Shown: positions 1 to 14,912 of the stretch, piece by piece
How positions within the stretch are numbered: position 1 is the stretch's first letter
Layout of the letters: each line of letters opens with the position of its first letter
DNA from: an uncultured Alphaproteobacteria bacterium
GTDB taxonomy: Bacteria; Pseudomonadota; Alphaproteobacteria; Rhizobiales; Beijerinckiaceae
Assembly: GCA_963759955.1 (NCBI GenBank)
Contig: CAVXCA010000026.1
Coordinates: forward strand, 3,348 to 67,347
Length of the DNA: 64,000 nucleotides
Reading direction: 5' to 3'
Program-made: the position numbers and the translations under genes
The notes under the pieces: generated by a model
Databases searched by the model: none
Seen by the model: only the letters and a program-made list of their open reading frames with translations
What the model was told of the DNA's origin: nothing

Positions 1-1036
1 CGATGATTTTATTGGGGTCGGCGGTCCAGGTGAAGGGCGCGGATTGCCGATTGTGCTCTTCGAGGAATCGATTGATGGCGGCCTGCAAATCGACGACCGA
101 TCGGAATACGCCGCGCTTGAGTTTGCGCTTGGTGAGCGTGGCGAAGAAGCCTTCGACGGCGTTGAGCCACGAGCAGGACGTCGGCGTGAAGTGGAAGACG
201 AACCGCTCGTGCCGAGCGAGCCACTGGAGCACTTTGGGATGCTTGTGGGCGGCGTAATTGTCGAGGATCACATGCACCATCTTGCCGGCGGGAACCCGAG
301 CGTCGATGGCGTTGAGAAAGCGGATGAACTCCTGATGGCGGTGGCGCTGCATGTTTTGGCCGATGACCGTGCCGTCGAGAATATTCATGGCGGCGAACAG
401 CGTCGTCGTGCCGTTCCTGACGTAGTCGTGGGTCATCGTGCCGGCGCGGCCCTTCTTGAGCGGCAGCCCGGGCTGGGTGCGGTCGAGCGCCTGAATTTGG
501 CTCTTCTCGTCGAGAGACAGGACGATGGCGTGCGCGGGCGGATCGACATAGAGCCCGACCACATCGCGCAGCTTCTCGATGAATTTCGGATCGTTGGAAA
601 GTTTGAACTGCCGCATGCGGTGCGGCTGAAGACCATGTTTGCGCCAGATGCGTTGAACCGAGCTGACGGAGACGCCCGAGGCCTTCGCCATCAAAGCGCC
701 GGTCCAATGCGTTGTCTCCCCCGGCGGCGGATCGAGCGTCAGGGCCACGACCCGCGCAACGATCTCGTCCGCCAGCAGCTTGACGCGCGAAGGCCGCGTC
801 TTGTCGCGCGCCAGCCCCTCGAACCCTTCGTCGGCGAACCGTTCCTGCCAGCGCCAGACACAAGTTTTCGACTTGCCCGTCCGGCGCATGATCTCGTTCG
901 TGCCCACGCCGTCGGCCGTCAAAAGCACGATCTGGCCCCGCCAAACGTGCTTCTGCGGCGCGTTGCGATCCTTGATCAGAGCCAAAAGCCGGAGCCGATC
1001 TTCCGCCGAAACGGCAAGCGATATTCCCGTGCGCAT
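1..1036 (-). CDS. IS630-family DDE transposase (runs off window; absent from ORF track)
   Basis: Manual translation from the ATG at 1036: MRTGISLAVSAEDRLRL...LDEKSQIQALDRTQPGLP...THDYVRNGTTTLFAA...ILDNYAAHKH...FTPTSCSWLNAVE...PFTWTADPNKII. These are typical IS630 motifs. Confidence 0.95.
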   Translation of the reverse strand, partial: MRTGISLAVSAEDRLRLLALIKDRNAPQKHVWRGQIVLLTADGVGTNEIMRRTGKSKTCVWRWQERFADEGFEGLARDKTRPSRVKLLADEIVARVVALTLDPPPGETTHWTGALMAKASGVSVSSVQRIWRKHGLQPHRMRQFKLSNDPKFIEKLRDVVGLYVDPPAHAIVLSLDEKSQIQALDRTQPGLPLKKGRAGTMTHDYVRNGTTTLFAAMNILDGTVIGQNMQRHRHQEFIRFLNAIDARVPAGKMVHVILDNYAAHKHPKVLQWLARHERFVFHFTPTSCSWLNAVEGFFATLTKRKLKRGVFRSVVDLQAAINRFLEEHNRQSAPFTWTADPNKII

Positions 1037-1105
1037 GCGCCAGACTCGCACATCGCCAGTCCGCCGGGAATCCTCAATAGGATTCAAATGTCAGATTTCA
1101 TCCAC
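1..1105 (-). mobile_element. IS630-family insertion sequence (partial; other end beyond window)
   Basis: Transposase on the minus strand. The terminus GTGGATGAAATCTGACATTTGAATC (minus strand) abuts a TA dinucleotide at 1106-1107, the IS630 target. Confidence 0.9.
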
Positions 1106-2177
1106 TAGAGTCAATTCGTTCAGCGGGAATGTCCTGGTAATTTGTTATAAGACGATAGAGCACCTGTCTCGCGTACTCGTCGTGATCGGGTAAAGAATAA
1201 CCGATAATCACCATTCGAAAGCTATAACCGCCGTCGCGCCCCATCCCCCTCCAATAGTCCTCCAACTGGTGCGCATATACGACTTTGGTAGTCGACGGCG
1301 CTATCAACGTCGGCGTCGACAAGAAAAAAGGTGGGGCAGAATAGAGGCGCTCGATGTCGAGTACGCGTTGGACTTCGCGAAGAGGGTCGTCCTCAAATCG
1401 TGGACCCACAACGATTGGCGTGGTCACGAAATTGCTGGGCGAGTTGAATATTGGGTCATCAGGTACATAACCAGGGTGGCCATCGCGGTCTGCGGATTCT
1501 TGCGTGAGGCGAAAACTCTTTCGACTGAACCAGTCGAGGGAGCCGTGCATCTTCAATATGGCAACTTCGCCATAACAAGATGGGTCGATCGAACCCGAGT
1601 TACCGATAATTGAGGTGTAACGCATCGGTGCTAGTCGATAAGGTTTTCCGACGTGCTCGCATGCTCGCTCCAGAAGTATGTCGTAGTTGAATGTAATTAC
1701 GCGATCCCAAGGCTGCAATTTCTCTGCGAACCGGAGATACAAAGAGGGAATTGAGGTTGGGGCTGGAGTGCGCTCGGTGAGAATTTGGCCAATCAACGTC
1801 TTTACAATGACCTGACTTTCGTTGCCGTCTTCGCTCCACGTGTCGGAGCCGCGGAGGCCGAGATAATGTTCAATGTCTAGAAATCCCAAGAACTCTTCAA
1901 AATCCACACCGTCGCGTTGCAACTGACGTCCTTCAGCACGCTCCTTGAATTCGATGTAGTCGTCCAGGTCTTTACGAAATTGCCCAGCACGGCCCGTCAT
2001 ACGCACCGCGCGACGGTACACTTCTTTCCAAAGCTCCTCTGCCAGCGGCAACCCAGCGGCGACAGAGAACCCGGCACCCAATATGTACAGCGCGTGCTTT
2101 TGCGAGGCCCACGCCTCGGCAAGATTTTCAGACACGGCAGGAGCCAGGCTCAAATTGGGTGAGTGCCGCAAGCGCAC
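1098..2177 (-). CDS. SIR2-like (SIR2_2) domain protein, 3' end interrupted by IS630
   Basis: Motifs ILGAGFS, ITFNYD, KMHGSLDW and IIGYSLP. The stop codon (1098-1100) lies inside the IS end. The start is uncertain (GTG 2177 or a downstream GTG). Confidence 0.85.
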   Translation of the reverse strand: MRLRHSPNLSLAPAVSENLAEAWASQKHALYILGAGFSVAAGLPLAEELWKEVYRRAVRMTGRAGQFRKDLDDYIEFKERAEGRQLQRDGVDFEEFLGFLDIEHYLGLRGSDTWSEDGNESQVIVKTLIGQILTERTPAPTSIPSLYLRFAEKLQPWDRVITFNYDILLERACEHVGKPYRLAPMRYTSIIGNSGSIDPSCYGEVAILKMHGSLDWFSRKSFRLTQESADRDGHPGYVPDDPIFNSPSNFVTTPIVVGPRFEDDPLREVQRVLDIERLYSAPPFFLSTPTLIAPSTTKVVYAHQLEDYWRGMGRDGGYSFRMVIIGYSLPDHDEYARQVLYRLITNYQDIPAERIDSSG

Positions 2178-2241: not shown

Positions 2242-3552
2242 TCACCAACTATCCGCGTCCCGCCGTTTCTTACGCCTCGGCCGCTTCGCCGGCACCTTCG
2301 GGAACGACGCGGCGATCCGCTCCTCCACTGGCGCACGTGGCATCATGTGGCGCGCATGTGCGAAGGCGACGACGCTTGCAAAGCGCGCGCCCAGCGGCGG
2401 GGGAGTGAGCGTGTCGATCAAGCGCGGCTCCAATGGCGCGCCGTCACGCATCAGTTTGATCCAAGCTCTATGATTGTTCGTCTGCGTCAACGGCACTGGA
2501 TTGCTCATGCCGAGTTCTCCCGCGAGACGCTTGGCGTCGTGAGCGCCGACGCGAAAGACGACAATCGTTCCGGCGTTGCCGAAGACGGCATGTTGTAGGG
2601 CTTCCGGAAGCTGGGCGATCTGCTGATTCGCCGCAACCAATGAGAGACGCCACTTGCGCGCTTCCGAGAGAATCGATGCGAAACTCTCGGTCGCGAAGTT
2701 TTGGAATTCATCGACGTACAGCGTGAAGTCGCGGCGCTCGTGCTCCGGCATGTGCCGGCGCGCTTCGGCCGCTTGCGAGCAAGCGGTGATGAGAAGCGCG
2801 CCCAAGAGGTGCGCCGGCTCCGTGCCAAGATTGCCCTTCGACAGATTGACGATGAGCACCTTGCCCTTATTCATTACGTCGGGGATTTTGAGCGTCGAAG
2901 AATTCTGACAGAGGATCGATCGAATGAACGGGTTGGCGAGGAATGCGCCAACTTTGTTTTGGATCGGCGCAATCGCCTCGTTGCGGAATCGTATGTCGTA
3001 GGCGGCGTACTCGGTCAACCAAAACGCGCGCACGACGGGGTCTTGGCAGCGGACGACAAGCCGATGGCGATAGTCGTCGTCGACCAGCAAACGGGGAAGT
3101 CCGAGCAATGTTTCATCGCGGGCGTCGAGCAGCAAGCGAATCGAATGACCGAGGATATATTCGAGGCGTGCGCCCCACGTGTTTGCCCAAATGTTTTTGA
3201 ATGACGAGACGATGTTCGCGGCGGTGGTCGCGCGCTCGGCTTCGGGGACGTTCGATAGGGGATTGTAAGCGAAGGTGTGGGTGGGGTCGGACGGGTCGAG
3301 ATAGATCACGTCCGCCCGGCGCTCCTTCGGAGCGAGGCTGGCGATGTGCTGGCTCGCATCGCCGTGGGGATCGAGAAAGCAGAAGCCCGCGCCGGCCTGA
3401 AGGTCGGCGTGCATGAGGTTGAGTAACAGTCCGGTCTTGCCGGTACCGGTCATGCCGACGACGTAGACATGCCGGCGGCGGTCAGCTTGCAACAGCGGCA
3501 CGCTCTCGCCGGTCGAGAGCGTGCCGAGAATCGTTTCGTGGTTCGTGAGCAT
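2242..3552 (-). CDS. Soluble TrwB/TraD/VirD4-HerA-like P-loop ATPase (T4SS DNA-binding domain type)
   Basis: Walker A GMTGTGKT, FCFLDPHGD, Walker B LYVDEFQNF, EARKWRL, ANQ, FGNAGT. No N-terminal TM segment. Likely ATG at 3552 (MLTNHETILG). Confidence 0.85.
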   Translation of the reverse strand: MLTNHETILGTLSTGESVPLLQADRRRHVYVVGMTGTGKTGLLLNLMHADLQAGAGFCFLDPHGDASQHIASLAPKERRADVIYLDPSDPTHTFAYNPLSNVPEAERATTAANIVSSFKNIWANTWGARLEYILGHSIRLLLDARDETLLGLPRLLVDDDYRHRLVVRCQDPVVRAFWLTEYAAYDIRFRNEAIAPIQNKVGAFLANPFIRSILCQNSSTLKIPDVMNKGKVLIVNLSKGNLGTEPAHLLGALLITACSQAAEARRHMPEHERRDFTLYVDEFQNFATESFASILSEARKWRLSLVAANQQIAQLPEALQHAVFGNAGTIVVFRVGAHDAKRLAGELGMSNPVPLTQTNNHRAWIKLMRDGAPLEPRLIDTLTPPPLGARFASVVAFAHARHMMPRAPVEERIAASFPKVPAKRPRRKKRRDADSW

Positions 3553-3721
3553 GGGAGGGCCGCCGCGCCGTGCCGAGTGTTCGCGCCGGTGGTGCAAGCT
3601 TCGGTCGGTTGGGGAGGCCCGCCATTGCCCGCGTGGTGAGCGCGAGCGAAGAGCTGCCTGCGGATATTGTAGCGCAGGGCAGGGGGAATAGTCGGGAGCG
3701 GTAAGGAACGGTTGAGAACCG

Positions 3722-3877
3722 TCCGCGCCAGTTCGTCGTGGCGCGCTTACGCGCGCCCGACCCAATAGGTTTTCCCGCAGCGACGTCCGTTAGGCGGAGC
3801 AAGTGGCTCGCTGATGTCCGATAGGCAGAAGAAAAGCTATTGGGTCGGGCGCGATAGCGCACGCGAACTGGCGCGGA
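3722..3877. repeat. Long bipartite inverted repeat
   Basis: 3722-3735 TCCGCGCCAGTTCG is the exact reverse complement of 3864-3877. 3752-3768 CGCGCCCGACCCAATAG is the exact reverse complement of 3837-3853. Confidence 0.9.
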
Positions 3878-3900
3878 ATCAGTGTGCTGTCGCCATTCGA

Positions 3901-3970
3901 TGGGGGAAACAGTTTCCCCCACCGTTTCCCCCTGCGCATATGCCACTTCGGTGGAAGGCGGTGGGGGAAT
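3901..3970. repeat. Cluster of TGGGGGAAA-like motifs including a perfect palindrome
   Basis: TGGGGGAAAC-A-GTTTCCCCCA (3901-3921), GTTTCCCCCT (3924-3933) and GTGGGGGAAT (3961-3970). Confidence 0.7.
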
Positions 3971-3980
3971 CGATCGCCCG

Positions 3981-5183
3981 CTAGGCGGAAGGCCGGGGCT
4001 CCAGCGCGCGGAATTCGTCGAGCATGTCGGCCCATTTCTGCATGAGCCCGACACGCTCGCGCCAATAGCTCGCGCGATTGTAGGCCCGCCGTATCGAATC
4101 GTCTTGCTGATGACCGAGCGCCGCTTCGATAACGTCGGGATTGAAGCCGTTCTCGTTGAGAATCGTGCTCGCGGTCGAGCGGAAACCGTGGGCGGTCATT
4201 TCGTCCTGGGTAAAGCCCATGCGGCGCAGGGCGGAGTTGAACGCGTTTTCGGACAGGGGCTTTCGGAACGAGCGCGTCGATGGAAAAATGAACGTGCTCA
4301 TTTCTGAGACCGGCCAAATGTCGCGCAAGATTGCGATGGCTTGTCGCGAAAGGGGAACGTCGTGCAGCCGGCGCATCTTCGTTCGCTCAGCGGGAATGCG
4401 CCAAACCGCTTTCTCGAAATTGATCTCTGACCGAGTCGCGCAACGAATCTCGCCCGGCCGTGCGAACGTCAGGGCGGAGAATTGCAGGGCCGCCTTGAGT
4501 GTCGGCCAGCCGTCGAAGGCGTCGATCGCGCGCAAGAGGCTCCCGAAGTGTCGCTCGTCGGTGATCGCCGCCCGCGGCTTGGAGTTCGGCTTAAGCAATG
4601 CGCCTTGTAGCGCGTAGCTGGGGTCGCTCGTCGCTCGCAGGGTAACGATCGCCAGCCGGAAGACTGAGCCGATAACGCCGCGCATCCGACGAGCCGTCTC
4701 TCGGCGTCCGCTCTTTTCGACCCGCTTCAAGAGATCGAGAATTTCGGCCGGGGTGATTTCAGTGATCGTGCGGGTCGAGATCGGACGGCACAGCTCCTCC
4801 AGGAACCATCTGTTCTTCTTCAGCGTCGATTGCGCCGCGCCGTTGGCCTCAAGCCGCTCGATGTATTCGCCAGCGATGACGCCGAAGGTGTTGTGCGACG
4901 TGGCTTCGGCGGCGATCCGGTCGAGTTTCTTTTGCACTGATGGATCGGTGCCCGCGATGATCTGCCGCTTCGCTTCTTCGCGCTTCCGCCTGGCGTCGGC
5001 CAACGAGACGATCGGGTAGGGGCCGATCGATAGGGTTCGCTCTTTGCCGAGAAAGAAGTAGCGCAGCCGCCAAAATTTGGAGCCGTTCGGCTGGACGACA
5101 AGGAAAAGACCGCCGCCGTCTGCGAGCTTGAACGCTTTCGCCGCGGGCTTGGCGTTGTCGACGGCGAGATTCGTGAGCGCCAT
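3981..5183 (-). CDS. P4-like tyrosine recombinase/integrase with N-terminal arm-binding domain
   Basis: N-terminal KLADGGGLFLVVQPNGSKFWRLRY. Catalytic R (ARPGEIR), K (RTKMR), HGFR, LGH and AY. Confidence 0.95.
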   Translation of the reverse strand: MALTNLAVDNAKPAAKAFKLADGGGLFLVVQPNGSKFWRLRYFFLGKERTLSIGPYPIVSLADARRKREEAKRQIIAGTDPSVQKKLDRIAAEATSHNTFGVIAGEYIERLEANGAAQSTLKKNRWFLEELCRPISTRTITEITPAEILDLLKRVEKSGRRETARRMRGVIGSVFRLAIVTLRATSDPSYALQGALLKPNSKPRAAITDERHFGSLLRAIDAFDGWPTLKAALQFSALTFARPGEIRCATRSEINFEKAVWRIPAERTKMRRLHDVPLSRQAIAILRDIWPVSEMSTFIFPSTRSFRKPLSENAFNSALRRMGFTQDEMTAHGFRSTASTILNENGFNPDVIEAALGHQQDDSIRRAYNRASYWRERVGLMQKWADMLDEFRALEPRPSA

Positions 5184-5359: not shown

Positions 5360-5445
5360 TGGTGCCCCTGGCCGGAATCGAACCAGCACTCCTTGCGGAA
5401 CTCGATTTTGAGTTCGAGCGCGTCTACCAGTTCCGCCACAGGGGC
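5360..5445 (-). tRNA. tRNA-Leu(CAA), class II, encoded CCA; one extra base in the anticodon loop
   Basis: GCCCCTGTGGCGGAACTGGTAGACGCGCTCGAACTCAAAATCGAGTTCCGCAAGGAGTGCTGGTTCGATTCCGGCCAGGGGCACCA: acceptor stem, D-loop, long variable arm and TTCGA T-loop. Confidence 0.93.
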
Positions 5446-5628: not shown

Positions 5629-6210
5629 ATGTTCAAGAGCCTCTATTCCAGGATCATCGCGCTCTCCGAGAGCGCCAACGCGCCTTACGCGCTCGCCGCG
5701 GTCGCTTTCGCCGAGAGTTCGTTCTTTCCCCTGCCCCCCGACGTGATCCTGGCGCCGATGTCGCTCGCCAAGCCGCAGCTCGCCTGGCGCTATGCGCTGA
5801 TCGCCACGATCGCCTCGGTCGTGGGCGGCGTCGTCGGCTATGGCATCGGCGCGCTGCTGTTCGACACGCTCGGCCAGTGGTTGATCCATCTATACGGCTA
5901 CGCCGACAAGATGGCGGCGCTGAAGGAGACCTATGCGCGATGGGGCGCGCTGGTGATCCTCATCAAGGGGTTGACGCCGATCCCCTATAAGCTGGTCACC
6001 ATCGTCAGCGGGCTGCTCGGCTACAACTTCGCGGCGTTCGTCGGGCTTTCGCTGGTGACGCGCGGCGCGCGGTTCTTTCTGCTTGCGGGCGCGCTCAATC
6101 ATTTCGGCGATCCGCTGCGCCTCGCGCTCGAACGTCATTTTGCCGTTTTCCTCGGGCTCATCGCGATCATGGTCGTGGCGGGCTTCGTCATCGCGACGCG
6201 GGTGCTCTGA
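5629..6210 (+). CDS. YqaA/DedA (SNARE-associated) family membrane protein
   Basis: AFAESSFFPLPPDV, ATIASVVGG, GLTPIPYK and RGARFF motifs. Confidence 0.9.
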   Translation: MFKSLYSRIIALSESANAPYALAAVAFAESSFFPLPPDVILAPMSLAKPQLAWRYALIATIASVVGGVVGYGIGALLFDTLGQWLIHLYGYADKMAALKETYARWGALVILIKGLTPIPYKLVTIVSGLLGYNFAAFVGLSLVTRGARFFLLAGALNHFGDPLRLALERHFAVFLGLIAIMVVAGFVIATRVL

Positions 6211-6719
6211 TGTCCTTTGTTGTGGCGGCTCTTCCCAAACGCGCGACCGACAACGCGCTGGCGATCGGCGGGCTCGCCTTCGCGACGATCGTCGCGGCGT
6301 GGGTGTTTCAAGCGCTCGGCTACGCCCCTTGCGATCTCTGCCTCGAGCAGCGTTACGCCTATTACGCCGGCGTTCCCCTCGCCGCCGTCGCATTCGCTCT
6401 GGCGGCGTCCGGAGCCAGCCGCGCCCTAATGCGCGGCGCGTTTTGGCTGCTGGCGCTGATCTTCGTCGGCAACGTCGTCCTGGCGACGTACCATTCGGGC
6501 GTCGAACTCCACCTCTGGCAGGGTCCGACCGCCTGCACCGGCGCGATCGACGCGCCAAAGGGCGCCGGCAACCTTCTTGATCAGCTCGCGACCGTCAAGG
6601 TCGTGAACTGCGACGTCGTGCAGATCAGGATTTTCGGCCTTTCGTTCGCCAACTGGAACATTCTCGTTTCCGGCGCCCTGGCGACGCTCGCCGCGCGCGC
6701 TGCGTTGGCGCGCGGCTGA
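6210..6719 (+). CDS. dsbB: Disulfide bond formation protein B
   Basis: TM helices, PCDLCLEQR (CxxC), and a second Cys pair in the periplasmic loop. Confidence 0.88.
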   Translation: MSFVVAALPKRATDNALAIGGLAFATIVAAWVFQALGYAPCDLCLEQRYAYYAGVPLAAVAFALAASGASRALMRGAFWLLALIFVGNVVLATYHSGVELHLWQGPTACTGAIDAPKGAGNLLDQLATVKVVNCDVVQIRIFGLSFANWNILVSGALATLAARAALARG

Positions 6720-6750
6720 AGGCCGCGATTGCGGCTAAGCGGACCTCGCT

Positions 6751-8280
6751 CTAAATCGGCGCCTTGCCCAGCGGCAAGCCGTTGACCTTCATCATGCCGT
6801 CTGCGCCGAGCTCCCCGATCCAGGTCAACGAGCCGTCGCTTTCGGTCTTGGCTAGGCCCTTGGCCATCGCCAGAACGGGAACCATCTTCTTTTCCGCCTC
6901 CGGGCCGAGGCCCTTCAGCGCCGCCTGCGTCTTGTCGAAATTGCGCATGTGCACGGTGAACGTTCCCGTAGGCATCTTGGCCTGATAGCGGACCTGGCCT
7001 TCGAACGCGATGTCGAGCTGCGGCGCGACGATGTGCGAAGGCGGGATGTCGACGACCAAGGGTCCTGCGCCGGTCAGCTTGGCCCAGACCTTTGCGTCGT
7101 CTTCGTCGGAGATCGGCGGCGCGTCGCCGACCAGATGCATGTCGGCGACCGCTTCCGCGCCCGCGGCCGTCAGATCGAAGCCGCTGACCTTGAACCCGAC
7201 GTCGAACGACGTCGGAACGAGATCGCGGAACATCGCGGGGACGAGGCCGGGCGGCAGCGTGAGGCCGCTCGCGGAGAAATGCTCCTCAAATCGGCTGGCG
7301 GAACCGGCCGCCGCGCCGCCGAGCCCCACCTTGGCGCCGTCGAAGGCGATCGGGCCCTGCGGCGTTTGCACGGTGAGCTTCTGCATTCCGACGTCTTCGT
7401 CGAGCGAGAGCTGGCTGGCGAGCGCCGCCGTCAGCAGCGTCTTGAAAGGCGCCTCGTTGGCGGCGAGTTCCGGTCGCGTCGGATGGGCGACCAGGAAAGC
7501 CCAGAGGTCGAGCAGCGGCTTCGGCTTCACGCCGCCCAATTTCATTTCGACGGACGCCTTGTCGGCCTGGGCGGCGATATTGACAGGCTTGGCGTTTGGC
7601 TTGGAATCGGCGTTCGGGTTGGCGCTCGCATCCGGTTTGATCGCGTTGGGATCGATCGTCATCGTCAAAGCGAGGGCGCCGATGGTTTCCTGCACGTCCG
7701 TCGCCTGCGCGCCGTCGGCGGACGCTTGGCTCGCCGTCGTGGCCTGCATCCCACCAAAATCCACCTTTTCGTCGATGCCGGGCCCCTGCGCGTGCATGGC
7801 GAATTTGTCGCCGCTCGCTTGGCCGCTCCGGACCCAGGAAGTCGCCGGATCGATCACCATGACGTTCTTCAGGCCGCCAAAAGTCATGGTCGAATCGAAG
7901 GTCAAGTCCTTGTGTTTCGAATGGGCGACGATAGTCGGGAACTCGCTCTGTTCGACGCGCCAGGCGCCGTCGTCCTGTTCGATCACTTTGAACTTCATGA
8001 TCGCAGAGTCGTAGCTGACGCCTGTGGCCTTGAGCGGAGCGAGAAGAGCGCCGATGTCGAACGCGACGAGGTAGTCTGCGCTCTCCGGCGTAACGACGAT
8101 CGAAGAAGGGGCGCCGGCGGTCTGTTGTCCGGCATAGGTCGCGAAGAATGCGCTGAGCTTTTGCGCTCCCTCGGGCGTGGCGGGCAAGTCTTTCGCGGCG
8201 GCGCCGACGGTGAGCGCGCCGAGCGCGGCGGTCGCGAGCAACGAGGCGCGCCAAGGAAAGCGAGTCTGGCGAGGCGGCAT
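6751..8280 (-). CDS. Large secreted hypothetical protein
   Basis: Signal peptide MPPRQTRFPWRASLLATAALGALTVGAAA from ATG 8280. The upstream part of the track ORF is a shadow frame. Confidence 0.8.
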   Translation of the reverse strand: MPPRQTRFPWRASLLATAALGALTVGAAAKDLPATPEGAQKLSAFFATYAGQQTAGAPSSIVVTPESADYLVAFDIGALLAPLKATGVSYDSAIMKFKVIEQDDGAWRVEQSEFPTIVAHSKHKDLTFDSTMTFGGLKNVMVIDPATSWVRSGQASGDKFAMHAQGPGIDEKVDFGGMQATTASQASADGAQATDVQETIGALALTMTIDPNAIKPDASANPNADSKPNAKPVNIAAQADKASVEMKLGGVKPKPLLDLWAFLVAHPTRPELAANEAPFKTLLTAALASQLSLDEDVGMQKLTVQTPQGPIAFDGAKVGLGGAAAGSASRFEEHFSASGLTLPPGLVPAMFRDLVPTSFDVGFKVSGFDLTAAGAEAVADMHLVGDAPPISDEDDAKVWAKLTGAGPLVVDIPPSHIVAPQLDIAFEGQVRYQAKMPTGTFTVHMRNFDKTQAALKGLGPEAEKKMVPVLAMAKGLAKTESDGSLTWIGELGADGMMKVNGLPLGKAPI

Positions 8281-13880: not shown

Positions 13881-14912
13881 ATGGCCTTCCTGACTTGGCT
13901 GCGGGCGGGAATTCTCGACCGACTGGTGCAGACTTTCGGCGCGACGGCGCCTTACGGCGCGACGGCGTTGGCCGGCGCCCTGACCTGCTCGGTCGCCTAT
14001 TACGTCTGGCGCCGGCGCTCGCGCGGCCGCCCGATGAGCGCGAGAGGCTTCGTGCGCTGGCTCTTCGCCGGGCGCATCTTCTGGAATCCTTCCTCGCTCA
14101 TGGACATGCGCCTGTGGATTCTCAACGGGCTGGTGCTCGCCTGGGCTTACGGCTTCCTCGCGGTCGGCGCCGTCTTCTGCAAGAACGCGGTCGCGGCGGC
14201 GATGACCGACGCGTTCGGTTCGCATCAGCCGACCGTCTGGCCGGCCTGGACGGTGCTGACCATGGCGACGCTGTTCGAATTGCTCGCCTATGAACTCGCC
14301 TATTGGTTCGGCCATTACCTCTTCCACCGCATTCCCGCGCTATGGGAGTTCCACAAGGTGCATCATTCGGCCGAGGTGATGACGCCTTTCACCGAGCTGC
14401 GCCAACATCCGATCGAAATCCTCGCGTTCGTGAACCTGGTCGCCATCGCCACCGGCACGGTGTTCGGCGTGATGACCTACGCCTTCGGGCCCGGCGTCCA
14501 GCCCTTCACCTTGCTCAACAGCAATATCCTGCTGATGCTGTTCCTCATCACCTACGGCCACCTGCGCCATACTCATATGTGGATCTCGTTCACCGGTCTG
14601 GCGGGCAAGATCTTGCAGAGCCCGGCCCATCATCAGCTCCATCACTCCGACAACCCCTTGCATTGGGACAAGAATCTCGGCTTCGCGCTCGCGGTGTGGG
14701 ACTGGGCGTTCGGGACGCTGTACATTCCACAGCCGACCCGCGAGGCCATCCGCTTCGGCGTCGGCCCGACCCAGGGCGAGTTCAGCACCGTGACGCGCAA
14801 TTACGTGCTGCCGTTCGTCCGTTTCGGCGAGCACGTCGCCAAAGCCGCGCGCCATCTCGTCCCCGCGGCGCACGGCGCGATCGGAGCCGATGCCGGCAAG
14901 TTGCGCGGCTGA
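13881..14912 (+). CDS. Sterol desaturase / fatty acid hydroxylase superfamily membrane protein
   Basis: His boxes HYLFH, HKVHH, HLRH and HHQLHH. KNLG...WDWAFGT. Confidence 0.88.
   Translation: MAFLTWLRAGILDRLVQTFGATAPYGATALAGALTCSVAYYVWRRRSRGRPMSARGFVRWLFAGRIFWNPSSLMDMRLWILNGLVLAWAYGFLAVGAVFCKNAVAAAMTDAFGSHQPTVWPAWTVLTMATLFELLAYELAYWFGHYLFHRIPALWEFHKVHHSAEVMTPFTELRQHPIEILAFVNLVAIATGTVFGVMTYAFGPGVQPFTLLNSNILLMLFLITYGHLRHTHMWISFTGLAGKILQSPAHHQLHHSDNPLHWDKNLGFALAVWDWAFGTLYIPQPTREAIRFGVGPTQGEFSTVTRNYVLPFVRFGEHVAKAARHLVPAAHGAIGADAGKLRG

Follow-up and report, generated by a model that had tools for sequence, protein, structure and literature searches.

The MOB-C relaxases are related to restriction endonucleases and make up the least understood relaxase class. 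To our knowledge, MOB-C transfer origins (oriT) have been mapped only in a few plasmids, namely pAD1, pAM373, and CloDF13. The oriT2 of pAD1 and the oriT of pAM373, both experimentally defined, belong to Enterococcus faecalis pheromone plasmids, which reportedly rely on the MOB-C relaxase TraX; in pAD1 the nick is said to lie inside a large inverted repeat, with short repeats reportedly setting specificity.

In pAM373, which was typed as MOBC and whose relaxase matches PF13814, re-checking of the sequence located short repeats with a 12-bp period (five to six direct copies) between the coupling-protein and relaxase genes and, beyond them, a bipartite inverted repeat of 142 bp whose arms measure 18 and 25 bp, with bulges of 12/17 nt and a fold z of -14. 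Furthermore, among 232 pAD1-like plasmids, homology spans the inverted repeat only (~92%) and stops at the repeats. PF13814 corresponds to the MobC relaxase superfamily (PMC5357655), and in streptococcal IME_Class_8 a VirD4-type coupling protein is combined with a PF13814/MobC relaxase and an integrase (Coluzzi et al., 2017, PMC5357655); the passages of this article that could be consulted describe no oriT for these elements.

Here, we analyzed a stretch of 64,000 nucleotides of alphaproteobacterial DNA, referred to in its whole length as the window. From sequence and by analogy with the enterococcal plasmids, a branched inverted repeat at 3722-3877, together with adjoining 9-mers at 3902-3969, is probably the oriT of a small MOB-C-type integrative mobilizable element inserted at a tRNA gene. 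Since the region resembles the enterococcal MOB-C oriT in build, it most likely represents a known kind of site rather than a new mechanism.

Structure and conservation of the inverted repeat

The inverted repeat comprises four stems or side hairpins and an apical cluster, as follows:

3722-3877 (156 nt, unstranded): whole branched inverted repeat, proposed oriT core, recognized by its arms, its fold, and its presence in about 30 loci
3722-3735 (unstranded): P1 outer stem, 5' arm, pairing with 3864-3877 (14/14 complementary)
3864-3877 (unstranded): P1 outer stem, 3' arm, complementary to 3722-3735
3740-3757 (unstranded): P2 side hairpin GGCGCGC-TTAC-GCGCGCC with a 7-bp stem, recognized by covariation
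3758-3774 (unstranded): P3 inner stem, 5' arm including the TTTTC extension, pairing with 3831-3847, recognized by covariation
3831-3847 (unstranded): P3 inner stem, 3' arm, recognized by complementarity and covariation
3849-3860 (unstranded): P4 side hairpin GCGC-GATA-GCGC, recognized by covariation
3784-3827 (plus strand): apical cluster of P5 (3784-3796), P7 (3797-3809), and P6 (3815-3827), recognized as direct-repeat family D1

The first-pass annotation had described a bulged hairpin with perfect outer arms of 14 bp and inner arms of 17 bp, separated by bulges of 16 and 10 nt, around a 68-nt core with an additional TTTTC/GAAAA pairing. The outer arms were recovered at the same positions, the inner arms (3752-3768/3837-3853) were again perfectly complementary, and both bulge lengths agreed; moreover, the inner arms reach 23 nt at 96% (3752-3774/3831-3853), the TTTTC/GAAAA pairing being part of this extension. 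The plain-bulge shape had to be abandoned, because the bulges at 3740-3757 and 3849-3860 are small covarying hairpins and the structure is consequently a four-way junction. Within the core, comparison disclosed three further short helices, among which GTCCGNTAGGC (minus strand, CCTAWCGGAC) occurs twice, as P5 and P6. As had also been observed, no ORF explains the structure, and the indels among homologues are not multiples of three.

Folding as RNA and as DNA, which had been suggested as a check, gave a stability far beyond chance on both strands: -95.5 kcal/mol for the minus strand (z -7.8) and -99.2 kcal/mol for the plus strand (z -7.1) as RNA, and -64.1 kcal/mol (z -8.7) as DNA, with 0/200 dinucleotide shuffles folding as well in each of the three cases (z -7 to -9).

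The same element, 153-156 nt long, occupies the same place in about 30 related loci. Within the genus, 10 of the 128 other genomes have it, one of them in three to four copies, and it was also found in 17 metagenome contigs. The covariance model detected none in 150 genomes from other genera of the order, and the viral contigs searched gave no match. A weak match at locus L142 (genome G136) looks like chance and was discarded. The hairpin is the best-conserved DNA of its module (81-100% identity, vs 69-88% for the ATPase gene), the window copy is 100% identical to the hairpin of one intact relative, and homology with the divergent elements L029 and L030 stops exactly at the 3' end of P1 (3878-3880).

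The covariation test on related islands, likewise proposed in the first-pass annotation, showed that the pairing is conserved, with compensatory changes in 19 of 53 base pairs vs 6.3 in shuffles (0/500 reached 19), and 97% of cells paired vs 34-44% for slid structures. Covariation backs every helix and was also seen on an alignment not fitted to the model. P1 is nearly invariant in 25 sequences, two of its pairs being compensatory in distant members. Compensatory changes affect three of the seven P2 pairs (GGCTCTC/GAGAGCC, GGCGCTC/GAGCGCC, GCCGC/GCGGC), with freely varying loops; 7 of the 16 P3 pairs, including a locus (L032) with TTTTGC/GCAAAA in place of CAATAG/CTATTG; and three of the four P4 pairs (GCTC/GAGC, GCGT/ACGC), with GATA, GGTA, GAA, GACT, or GAAT as loops. 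The apical helices P5-P7 covary weakly. The long hairpin is real and conserved; in principle, covariation of inverted-repeat half-sites could also reflect co-evolution with a dimeric DNA-binding protein.

The mobilization module and the flanking repeats

The surroundings of the hairpin in the window include the following features:

3902-3969 (unstranded): putative specificity repeats, 9-mers with 12-bp spacing
2242-3552 (minus strand): TraG/VirD4/HerA-like ATPase of 436 aa, first gene of the module (Pfam TrwB_AAD_bind, TraG-D_C, DUF87)
3981-5183 (minus strand): P4-type tyrosine integrase (Pfam Arm-DNA-bind_3, Phage_int_M, Phage_integrase)
5360-5445: probable tRNA-Leu gene adjoining the integrase, from a tRNA search
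1098-2177 (minus strand): SIR2-like gene (Pfam SIR2_2), cargo of the window copy, outside the conserved module

Across the family, an integrase or an AlpA-like ORF comes first, then the repeats, the hairpin, and the ATPase, next (where present) orf117 and a TrwB-like protein of 690 aa, and finally the relaxase and the primase. This order holds in all loci with enough flank except L139, whose relaxase match, at 31% identity, is both weak and distant, and L141, where the hairpin occurs without a recognizable ATPase or relaxase. The relaxase belongs to PF13814 (MOB-C) and the primase is of the DnaG type with a Zn-ribbon; in at least 15 related loci the hairpin lies inside the mobilization module, adjoining the ATPase and PF13814 relaxase genes. 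The ATPase, which also gave weak NCBIfam TraD and VirD4-like matches, is always found 120-170 nt downstream of the hairpin. On the other side, integrases have been swapped between relatives (24-97% identity), or an AlpA-like ORF takes their place. No second copy of the att repeat of the tRNA end was detected in the contig, nor within 10 kb in intact relatives.

In the window copy, SIR2 and IS630 have been inserted, and homology with all relatives stops at about 2276. The ATPase-SIR2 operon postulated in the first-pass annotation is no conserved unit, since SIR2 occurs in the window copy only and a relaxase normally follows the ATPase. A SIR2-HerA defence pair was rejected as well, the PADLOC matches being weak and the relatives having the relaxase in place of SIR2. 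All that is left of the relaxase of the window element is a frameshifted fragment truncated by IS21 (contig C26, 2491-3118), just outside the window; therefore, this copy, whose cis site is intact, is probably an orphan oriT that would be usable only in trans.

Between hairpin and integrase, the repeats consist of GGGGGAAAC at 3902-3910 (plus strand), inverted copies GTTTCCCCC at 3912-3920 and 3924-3932 with a 12-bp period, and GGGGGAA at 3963-3969. Related loci have three direct copies and one inverted copy, and other elements maintain the arrangement with different 9-mers (GGCATAAAC, GGCGGAAAC, GGCATATAC); identity in the repeat region falls to 53-66%, against 81-96% for the hairpin. Elements of the GGGGGAAAC type and of the GGCATAAAC type occur together in one genome (G090). 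Across related elements, the 9-mer motif follows the type of relaxase, and not that of the ATPase or integrase. Thus, L152 has an ATPase of the window type (90%) and a relaxase of the L029 type (86%), and both its hairpin variant and its repeat motif are of the L029 type, whereas L140 has an integrase of 72% identity, yet its relaxase and repeat motif are of the window type. Because the motif does not follow integrase identity, a reading of the 9-mers as integrase arm sites was rejected. The two to three direct plus inverted copies also resemble an operator or iteron set.

A second and very distant element of the same genome, C51 (relaxase 27%, ATPase 37%), reproduces this layout with unrelated sequence: an AlpA-like ORF, a terminator, TAGGGGTAC repeats, and a bipartite inverted repeat capped by three apical hairpins (z -9.5). 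The apical motif is present there as two copies of TGTCCGATAG outside the inverted repeat, for which reason the P5/P6 copies may be protein sites rather than hairpins.

A probable transfer origin and competing explanations

Transfer origin, replication origin, leader RNA, and ncRNA had all been offered in the first-pass annotation. The transfer origin is supported by a hairpin that is fixed in a module of ATPase, MOB-C relaxase, and primase genes across some 30 loci, varies with the relaxase type, and has the pAM373/pAD1 architecture. In the mechanism that we infer from the sequence, the PF13814 (TraX-like) relaxase would recognize its own element through the short repeats as specificity sites; the inverted repeat would be extruded or folded into the branched hairpin of P1-P4 and the apical cluster; and the relaxase would nick a single strand inside this structure or next to it. 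From there, the neighboring TraG/VirD4-like ATPase would pass the nucleoprotein on to a type IV secretion system provided by a helper, and the element-encoded DnaG-type primase may help second-strand synthesis.

Single-stranded initiation signals offer another comparison. The ssoA-type origins, the ICEBs1 sso, G4-type ssi, and Frpo-type ssDNA promoters are imperfect palindromes of 150-300 nt in non-coding mobile-element DNA, acting as orientation-specific folded single strands, and a three-hairpin cluster is typical of the G4 complementary-strand origin. The region could accordingly be an ssi, sso, or oriV of the excised element, with the folded strand recognized by a DnaG-type primase or RNA polymerase and the repeats serving as iterons, which we consider unlikely. 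The module always includes the Zn-ribbon primase gene, the short repeats look like iterons, and the relaxase family bears the name "replication-relaxation"; moreover, the apical part consists of three small hairpins, as in G4, with G.T pairs only on the plus strand (62 G.T vs 10 A.C cells overall), suggesting that one strand matters. However, the asymmetry in the main stems is only 5 vs 3 events, and, in contrast to those signals, no -35/-10 pair was found in the stems, whether by scan or by eye. Furthermore, the repeats track the relaxase, which fits an oriT at least as well; the same layout in pAM373/pAD1 is an oriT; and no replication initiator was seen besides the relaxase. We know of no ssoA, sso, ssi, or Frpo element flanked by relaxase-matched repeats.

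The primase gene and the family name leave room for a possible replication or priming origin, and such a role could coexist with an oriT. In a doubtful extension of this model, the transferred plus strand would refold in the recipient as a four-way junction with a three-hairpin cap, and primase or RNA polymerase would read the fold and start second-strand synthesis or early gene expression. If true, this dual-purpose ssDNA signal would be a class of conjugation signal new for MOB-C elements.

Two conserved features downstream of the hairpin bear on transcription:

3666-3671 (minus strand): -10-like box TACAAT, probable promoter of the ATPase operon, recognized by its invariance in related loci
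3649-3661 (minus strand): conserved GCAGGCAGCTCTT after the TACAAT box

The box, which a strict consensus scan missed, is invariant as TAYAAT in 13 loci, always between the hairpin and the ATPase gene, and is duplicated in L139 and L154 ahead of inserted toxin-antitoxin-like cassettes. Its proximity makes a purely regulatory role possible, in which the AlpA-like protein, the relaxase, or some other regulator of the ATPase-relaxase operon would use the palindrome and 9-mers as operators, with no part for these sites in DNA transfer. The invariant box and the conserved leader just downstream agree with this explanation, as do the hairpin 3' arm, which in loci of the L029 and L166 types occupies the expected place of a -35 element, and the AlpA-family ORF adjoining upstream in many loci. 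We regard it as quite unlikely: a branched structure of 156 nt with covarying side hairpins and free loops goes far beyond the needs of an operator, the spacing between hairpin and box ranges from 6 to ~70 nt with cassettes of 0.6-0.85 kb able to sit in between, and the repeat motif does not track the neighboring integrase. For the favored transfer origin, a probable promoter of the ATPase-relaxase operon lying just downstream means that relaxosome binding could autoregulate the operon.

A structured RNA, either a 5' leader of the ATPase mRNA on the minus strand or an antisense small RNA on the plus strand regulating the module, appears very unlikely. The fold is predicted to be very stable on both strands, and some of the covarying changes are compatible with G.U pairing, the plus strand having the larger share. 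However, with the invariant TAYAAT box on the downstream side of the hairpin, transcription of the operon probably begins beyond the hairpin, which disfavors the leader and ncRNA options of the first-pass annotation. No promoter-like signal was detected around the hairpin on either strand, and 3450-4100 has no terminator-like site on either strand and no T-run at the hairpin; a separate canonical intrinsic terminator of the upstream gene precedes the repeats in L166-type loci. In addition, the better-folding strand is antisense to all neighboring genes. A scan of Rfam 15 at a permissive threshold reached no gathering score and returned only chance-level miRNA and sRNA matches, the best being a miRNA-precursor model with 23 bits vs a gathering score of 90 (E 1.2).

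Finally, a selfish dispersed repeat (MITE/REP-like) or an integrase-gene terminator, as a long intergenic palindrome directly downstream of the integrase gene might suggest, is hardly credible: the former is rejected because the 4.6-Mb genome has a single copy of the hairpin, and the hairpin always holds one position in one module; against the latter, there is no T-run and the hairpin is also present where no integrase is adjacent.

Relationship to described MOB-C systems

In the searches made, the region resembled no known oriT or plasmid in sequence: blastn of the region against 72,556 plasmids gave no match, the relaxase protein found nothing among plasmids, and the covariance model found nothing in pAM373. 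Likewise, the relaxases of this family and those of the pAD1/pAM373 type were not alignable by BLASTP. Patescibacteria loci with ATPases of ~45% identity were set aside, having neither the model hairpin nor a consistent large inverted repeat upstream. Transfer-origin finders that use sequence similarity would miss oriTs of this kind.

The family provides a secondary-structure model of a MOB-C-type site backed by covariation, in which what looked like "bulges" in the large inverted repeat are genuine side hairpins, and its natural swaps are evidence that the relaxase goes with the flanking repeats and not with the inverted repeat. Covariance model and repeat layout together give a searchable signature for the predicted oriTs of small defence-carrying islands of Alphaproteobacteria; moreover, a decayed island with SIR2 cargo and no relaxase could be moved in trans by intact relatives.

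As far as the consulted passages of PMC5357655 describe IME_Class_8, the present elements share with it the compact integrative mobilizable design of VirD4-like ATPase, MobC relaxase, and integrase (Coluzzi et al., 2017), but they use P4-type tyrosine integrases or an AlpA-like gene instead of serine integrases, and their module adds a DnaG-type primase.

The likeness to pAD1 and pAM373 concerns architecture. As in pAM373, a large bipartite inverted repeat (142 bp there, 156 bp here) with two perfect arm pairs and unequal bulges (12/17 nt there, 16/10 nt here) lies directly beside short repeats of 12-bp period; as in both plasmids, the inverted repeat is kept among related elements while the short repeats are not, and the module includes a TraG-like ATPase and a PF13814 relaxase. 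The differences are of position and detail: the site lies upstream of the ATPase at the module edge, and not between coupling protein and relaxase; the repeats are two to three direct plus inverted copies, and not the five to six direct copies of pAM373; the bulges here are covarying side hairpins that make the structure a four-way junction; and the host replicon is an island of an alphaproteobacterial chromosome, where pAD1 and pAM373 are Gram-positive plasmids.

The hairpin and its surroundings in the window

The branched inverted repeat at 3722-3877 of the window (156 nt; hereafter the hairpin) is most likely an oriT, a reading that we hold with moderate confidence; it would belong to an integrative mobilisable element of MOB-C type and be orphaned here because the cognate relaxase is broken. 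All surrounding genes lie on the minus strand, and the local features are the following (C26 denotes positions on the contig itself, the rest those of the window).

C26:32-2346, IS21 element (IstA/IstB), which follows and truncates the relaxase fragment
C26:2491-3118, just left of the window, PF13814-type relaxase fragment, residues 14-222, frameshifted
2-1087, minus strand, IS630-type transposase (DDE_3)
1098-2177, minus strand, SIR2-like gene
2242-3552, minus strand, TraG/VirD4/HerA-like ATPase, 436 aa
3666-3671, minus strand, -10-like TACAAT, followed by the conserved GCAGGCAGCTCTT
3722-3877, hairpin, preceded by 9-mer repeats, between the integrase and ATPase genes
3902-3910, GGGGGAAAC
3912-3920 and 3924-3932, GTTTCCCCC, 12-bp period
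3963-3969, GGGGGAA
3981-5183, minus strand, P4-type tyrosine integrase
5360-5445, minus strand, tRNA gene, 86 nt, reported by ARAGORN as 'tRNA-???'

By eye, the tRNA gene is probably a class II tRNA-Leu with a CAA anticodon loop, and it is likely the integration site of the island. Intact relatives match the relaxase fragment at 87% identity; the genome, 91% complete, yielded no intact PF13814 gene. Several insertions mark the decay of the element, with the SIR2 cargo and the IS630-type insertion sequence (IS) sitting between ATPase and relaxase; homology of the window to all relatives ends at about 2276, and among related loci only the window copy has SIR2 after the ATPase.

The arms described in the first-pass annotation were recovered in full, the outer ones (3722-3735/3864-3877) being complementary at 14 of 14 positions and the inner ones (3752-3768/3837-3853) perfect, while the proposed TTTTC/GAAAA pairing extends the latter to 23 nt at 96%. 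The folding that it had called for gave -95.5 kcal/mol (z -7.8) for minus-strand RNA, -99.2 kcal/mol (z -7.1) for plus-strand RNA and -64.1 kcal/mol (z -8.7) for plus-strand DNA, with none of 200 shuffles as good in any case. An Rfam search returned chance-level matches only. With a single copy in the 4.6-Mb assembly, the hairpin is not a dispersed repeat.

Distribution, conservation and comparative structure

Of 128 other genomes of the genus, 10 carry the hairpin DNA. Searching public metagenome contigs for an invariant core pattern of 23 bases brought in 17 further loci; viral contigs yielded none. Twenty distinct copies served to build a covariance model, which matched four loci reached via relaxase homologues of about 60% identity (136-143 bits) and one in a more distant alphaproteobacterial MAG whose ATPase is 51% identical (L032, 60 bits). 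It found no hairpin in 150 genomes from other genera of the order, in Patescibacteria loci with about 45%-identical ATPases, or in plasmid pAM373. The 436-aa ATPase itself has hundreds of such homologues in Patescibacteria (CPR) genomes (L033-L110), which is unusually high for an alphaproteobacterial mobile-element protein. In one relative (L030, G011:C2), an IS256-family IS at 6183-7484 (Transposase_mut, E 1e-122) splits the hairpin, having entered the inner stem at CCCAATA, and the downstream ATPase is still intact.

Identity to the window is 81-100% in the hairpin, 69-88% in ATPase coding DNA, 66-93% in the spacer up to the start codon and 53-66% in the repeat region, which is essentially unalignable. 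Hairpin length is constant at 153-156 nt, and in the most divergent close relatives (L029, L030) homology stops exactly at the outer arm, at 3878-3880. Within the 5' leader of the ATPase (3553-3660, minus strand), ACCGACCGAAGCTYGYACCA...CGAACACTCGGCACGGC is nearly invariant even at 64-68% ATPase protein identity; this could act in control at the level of translation or RNA, or serve as a protein site.

Comparative data support a predicted four-way junction (helices P1, P2, P3 and P4) capped by three short helices (P5, P7 and P6). The unequal bulges noted at first pass are present, but each is a hairpin itself. In P2 (3740-3757), GGCGCGC/GCGCGCC is replaced by GGCGCTC/GAGCGCC, GGCTCTC/GAGAGCC or GCCGC/GCGGC under freely varying loops (TTAC, GAA, GTAA, GCAT, GCAA, TTT, GCGA), and in P4 (3849-3860) GCGC/GCGC becomes GCTC/GAGC or GCGT/ACGC, with loops GATA, GGTA, GAA, GACT and GAAT. 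The inner stem, P3, changes from AATAG/CTATT to AATAC/GTATT, and in L032 the whole block CAATAG/CTATTG is swapped for TTTTGC/GCAAAA. In a 20-sequence MAFFT alignment unfitted to structure, 97.3% of 1007 cells were paired (slid controls, 32-45%), with compensatory changes in 5 of 53 pairs (23 cells). A 25-sequence model-fitted alignment gave 97.2% (slid controls, 34-44%) and compensatory changes in 19 of 53 pairs (shuffle mean 6.3; 0 of 500 reached 19), at least one in each of the seven helices; since this alignment favours structure and the sequences are related to one another, these counts are supportive rather than formal probabilities.

On the plus strand, which is antisense to all neighbouring genes, G.T pairs exceed A.C mismatches by 62 to 10 cells; in the main stems the comparison is only 5 to 3 events, and the bias arises in the apical cluster. 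There, P5 and P6 are two direct copies of GTCCGNTAGGC. A distant element elsewhere in this genome has the same motif, as two copies of TGTCCGATAG at 13-bp spacing, outside its inverted repeat, so P5 and P6 may be protein-binding sites rather than hairpins.

That element is a mobilisation module on another contig, C51, apparently intact and very divergent.

C51:36000-47000 (L170), distant mobilisation module
8431-8444/8586-8599 and 8453-8472/8560-8579 of L170, arms of a bipartite inverted repeat, z -9.5

Identities are 27% for its relaxase, 37% for its ATPase and 50% for its primase; the relaxase is a distant homologue with no Pfam hit, an AlpA-family ORF scores above the Pfam cut-off, and a 724-aa TraG-like protein is also encoded. 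The intergenic region has the layout of the window in unrelated sequence: a terminator, TAGGGGTAC repeats in both orientations, the inverted repeat with three apical hairpins, the TGTCCGATAG pair, a TATAAT box and the ATPase gene.

Module order, repeat words and rival readings

At all loci with sufficient flank, except L139 and L141, the module opens with an integrase or an AlpA-like 68-aa ORF with its own intrinsic terminator, followed by short repeats, the hairpin, the 436-aa ATPase gene 120-170 nt downstream, in one subtype only a 117-aa ORF and a 690-aa TrwB-like paralogue, a PF13814 Replic_Relax protein and, lastly, a DnaG Zn-ribbon primase-like protein. L139 has a weak, distant relaxase match (31% identity), and L141 a hairpin with no recognisable ATPase or relaxase. 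Integrases are freely swapped, as their identities to that of the window range from 24 to 97%. Flanks of L166-L169 carry varied defence-type cargo, including a LmuB_C/Lamassu-like gene, an MmeI-type restriction-modification gene, OLD/AAA_15 and UvrD-like genes, nSTAND3, type I restriction subunits and an ArdC-like anti-restriction gene; defence genes, SIR2 of the window among them, apparently travel on elements of this family. PF13814 corresponds to the MobC relaxase superfamily, and a class of integrative mobilisable elements combining a MobC relaxase, a VirD4-type coupling protein and an integrase is described (PMC5357655).

Between hairpin and upstream gene the arrangement is constant, with one 9-mer in both orientations, and other elements build it from other words (GGCATAAAC, GGCGGAAAC/GGCAGAAA, GGCATATAC, GAGGGAAAC). 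Wherever the relaxase is at least 85% identical, the word is GGGGGAAAC, and L140 has it despite an integrase only 72% identical. At relaxase identities of 74-78% (L138) and 71-73% (L154) the words are GGCATAAAC and GGCGGAAAC, and L029 and L152, whose relaxases are about 51-55% identical to the window type and 86% to each other, use GGCATATAC. The repeat word tracks the relaxase. L152, which couples a window-type ATPase (90%) to a relaxase, hairpin variant and repeat word of L029 type, is a natural swap: cis site and relaxase thus stay matched across the exchange of the gene that lies between them. In one genome (G090; L137, L138, L143, L144), three to four copies are present that differ in repeat word (GGGGGAAAC and GGCATAAAC) and in integrase, which fits coexisting elements of distinct specificity. 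On the oriT reading, the 9-mers would confer specificity for the relaxase, with the branched inverted repeat as the conserved processing site.

Among the four proposals of the first-pass annotation, oriT is favoured by synteny, the repeat-relaxase match and the pAM373 architecture. The main rival, an origin for single-strand priming or for replication that the element's primase would serve, could coexist with an oriT, and we regard it as unlikely. A purely regulatory palindrome seems more doubtful still. A structured RNA, whether leader or ncRNA, is very improbable: a TAYAAT hexamer invariant in 13 loci lies between hairpin and ATPase gene, at 6 to about 70 nt from the hairpin, so the operon mRNA probably begins past it, and a toxin-antitoxin-like cassette bringing its own TACAAT copy is interposed in L139 and L154. 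These two-gene cassettes (L139, 8243-8820; L154, hairpin-ATPase spacer of about 1.0 kb) include one ORF that is ParE/RelE-like by eye. Against both RNA and terminator readings, a strict consensus scan of both strands around the hairpin gave no promoter or terminator, and L166-type upstream genes have their own canonical terminator ahead of the repeats.

Comparison with the oriT of pAM373 and pAD1

Our yardstick for a MOB-C oriT was pAM373 (NC_002630), which is typed as MOBC and whose relaxase matches PF13814 above the cut-off. Between its coupling-protein and relaxase genes, five to six repeats of 12-bp period (14552-14629) come first, and after them a bipartite inverted repeat of 142 bp: its outer arms measure 18 bp and its inner arms 25 bp, the bulges are unequal (12 and 17 nt) and the loop has 27 nt (DNA fold z -14). 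Francia and Clewell, in 2002, reportedly found the large inverted repeat homologous between pAD1 and pAM373 and the short repeats non-homologous and specificity-setting, and the nick is said to lie within the inverted repeat. The homology and non-homology were verified at the sequence level in 232 pAD1-like plasmids, whose match to pAM373 comprises the inverted repeat only (~92%), ending where the repeats start. The oriT of both plasmids was mapped in the region that holds the repeats and the inverted repeat, between ORF53 and ORF57 (PMC3084688); the prototype of MOB-C relaxases is TraX of pAD1 (PMC6736028; PMC5714925).

The kind of site is already known and the mechanism not new; this clade and element type were without an earlier description of such sites, and what makes the present case valuable is the covariation-backed structure together with the natural swap. 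In sequence the window element and the pAM373 site are not similar. The two have four architectural properties in common.
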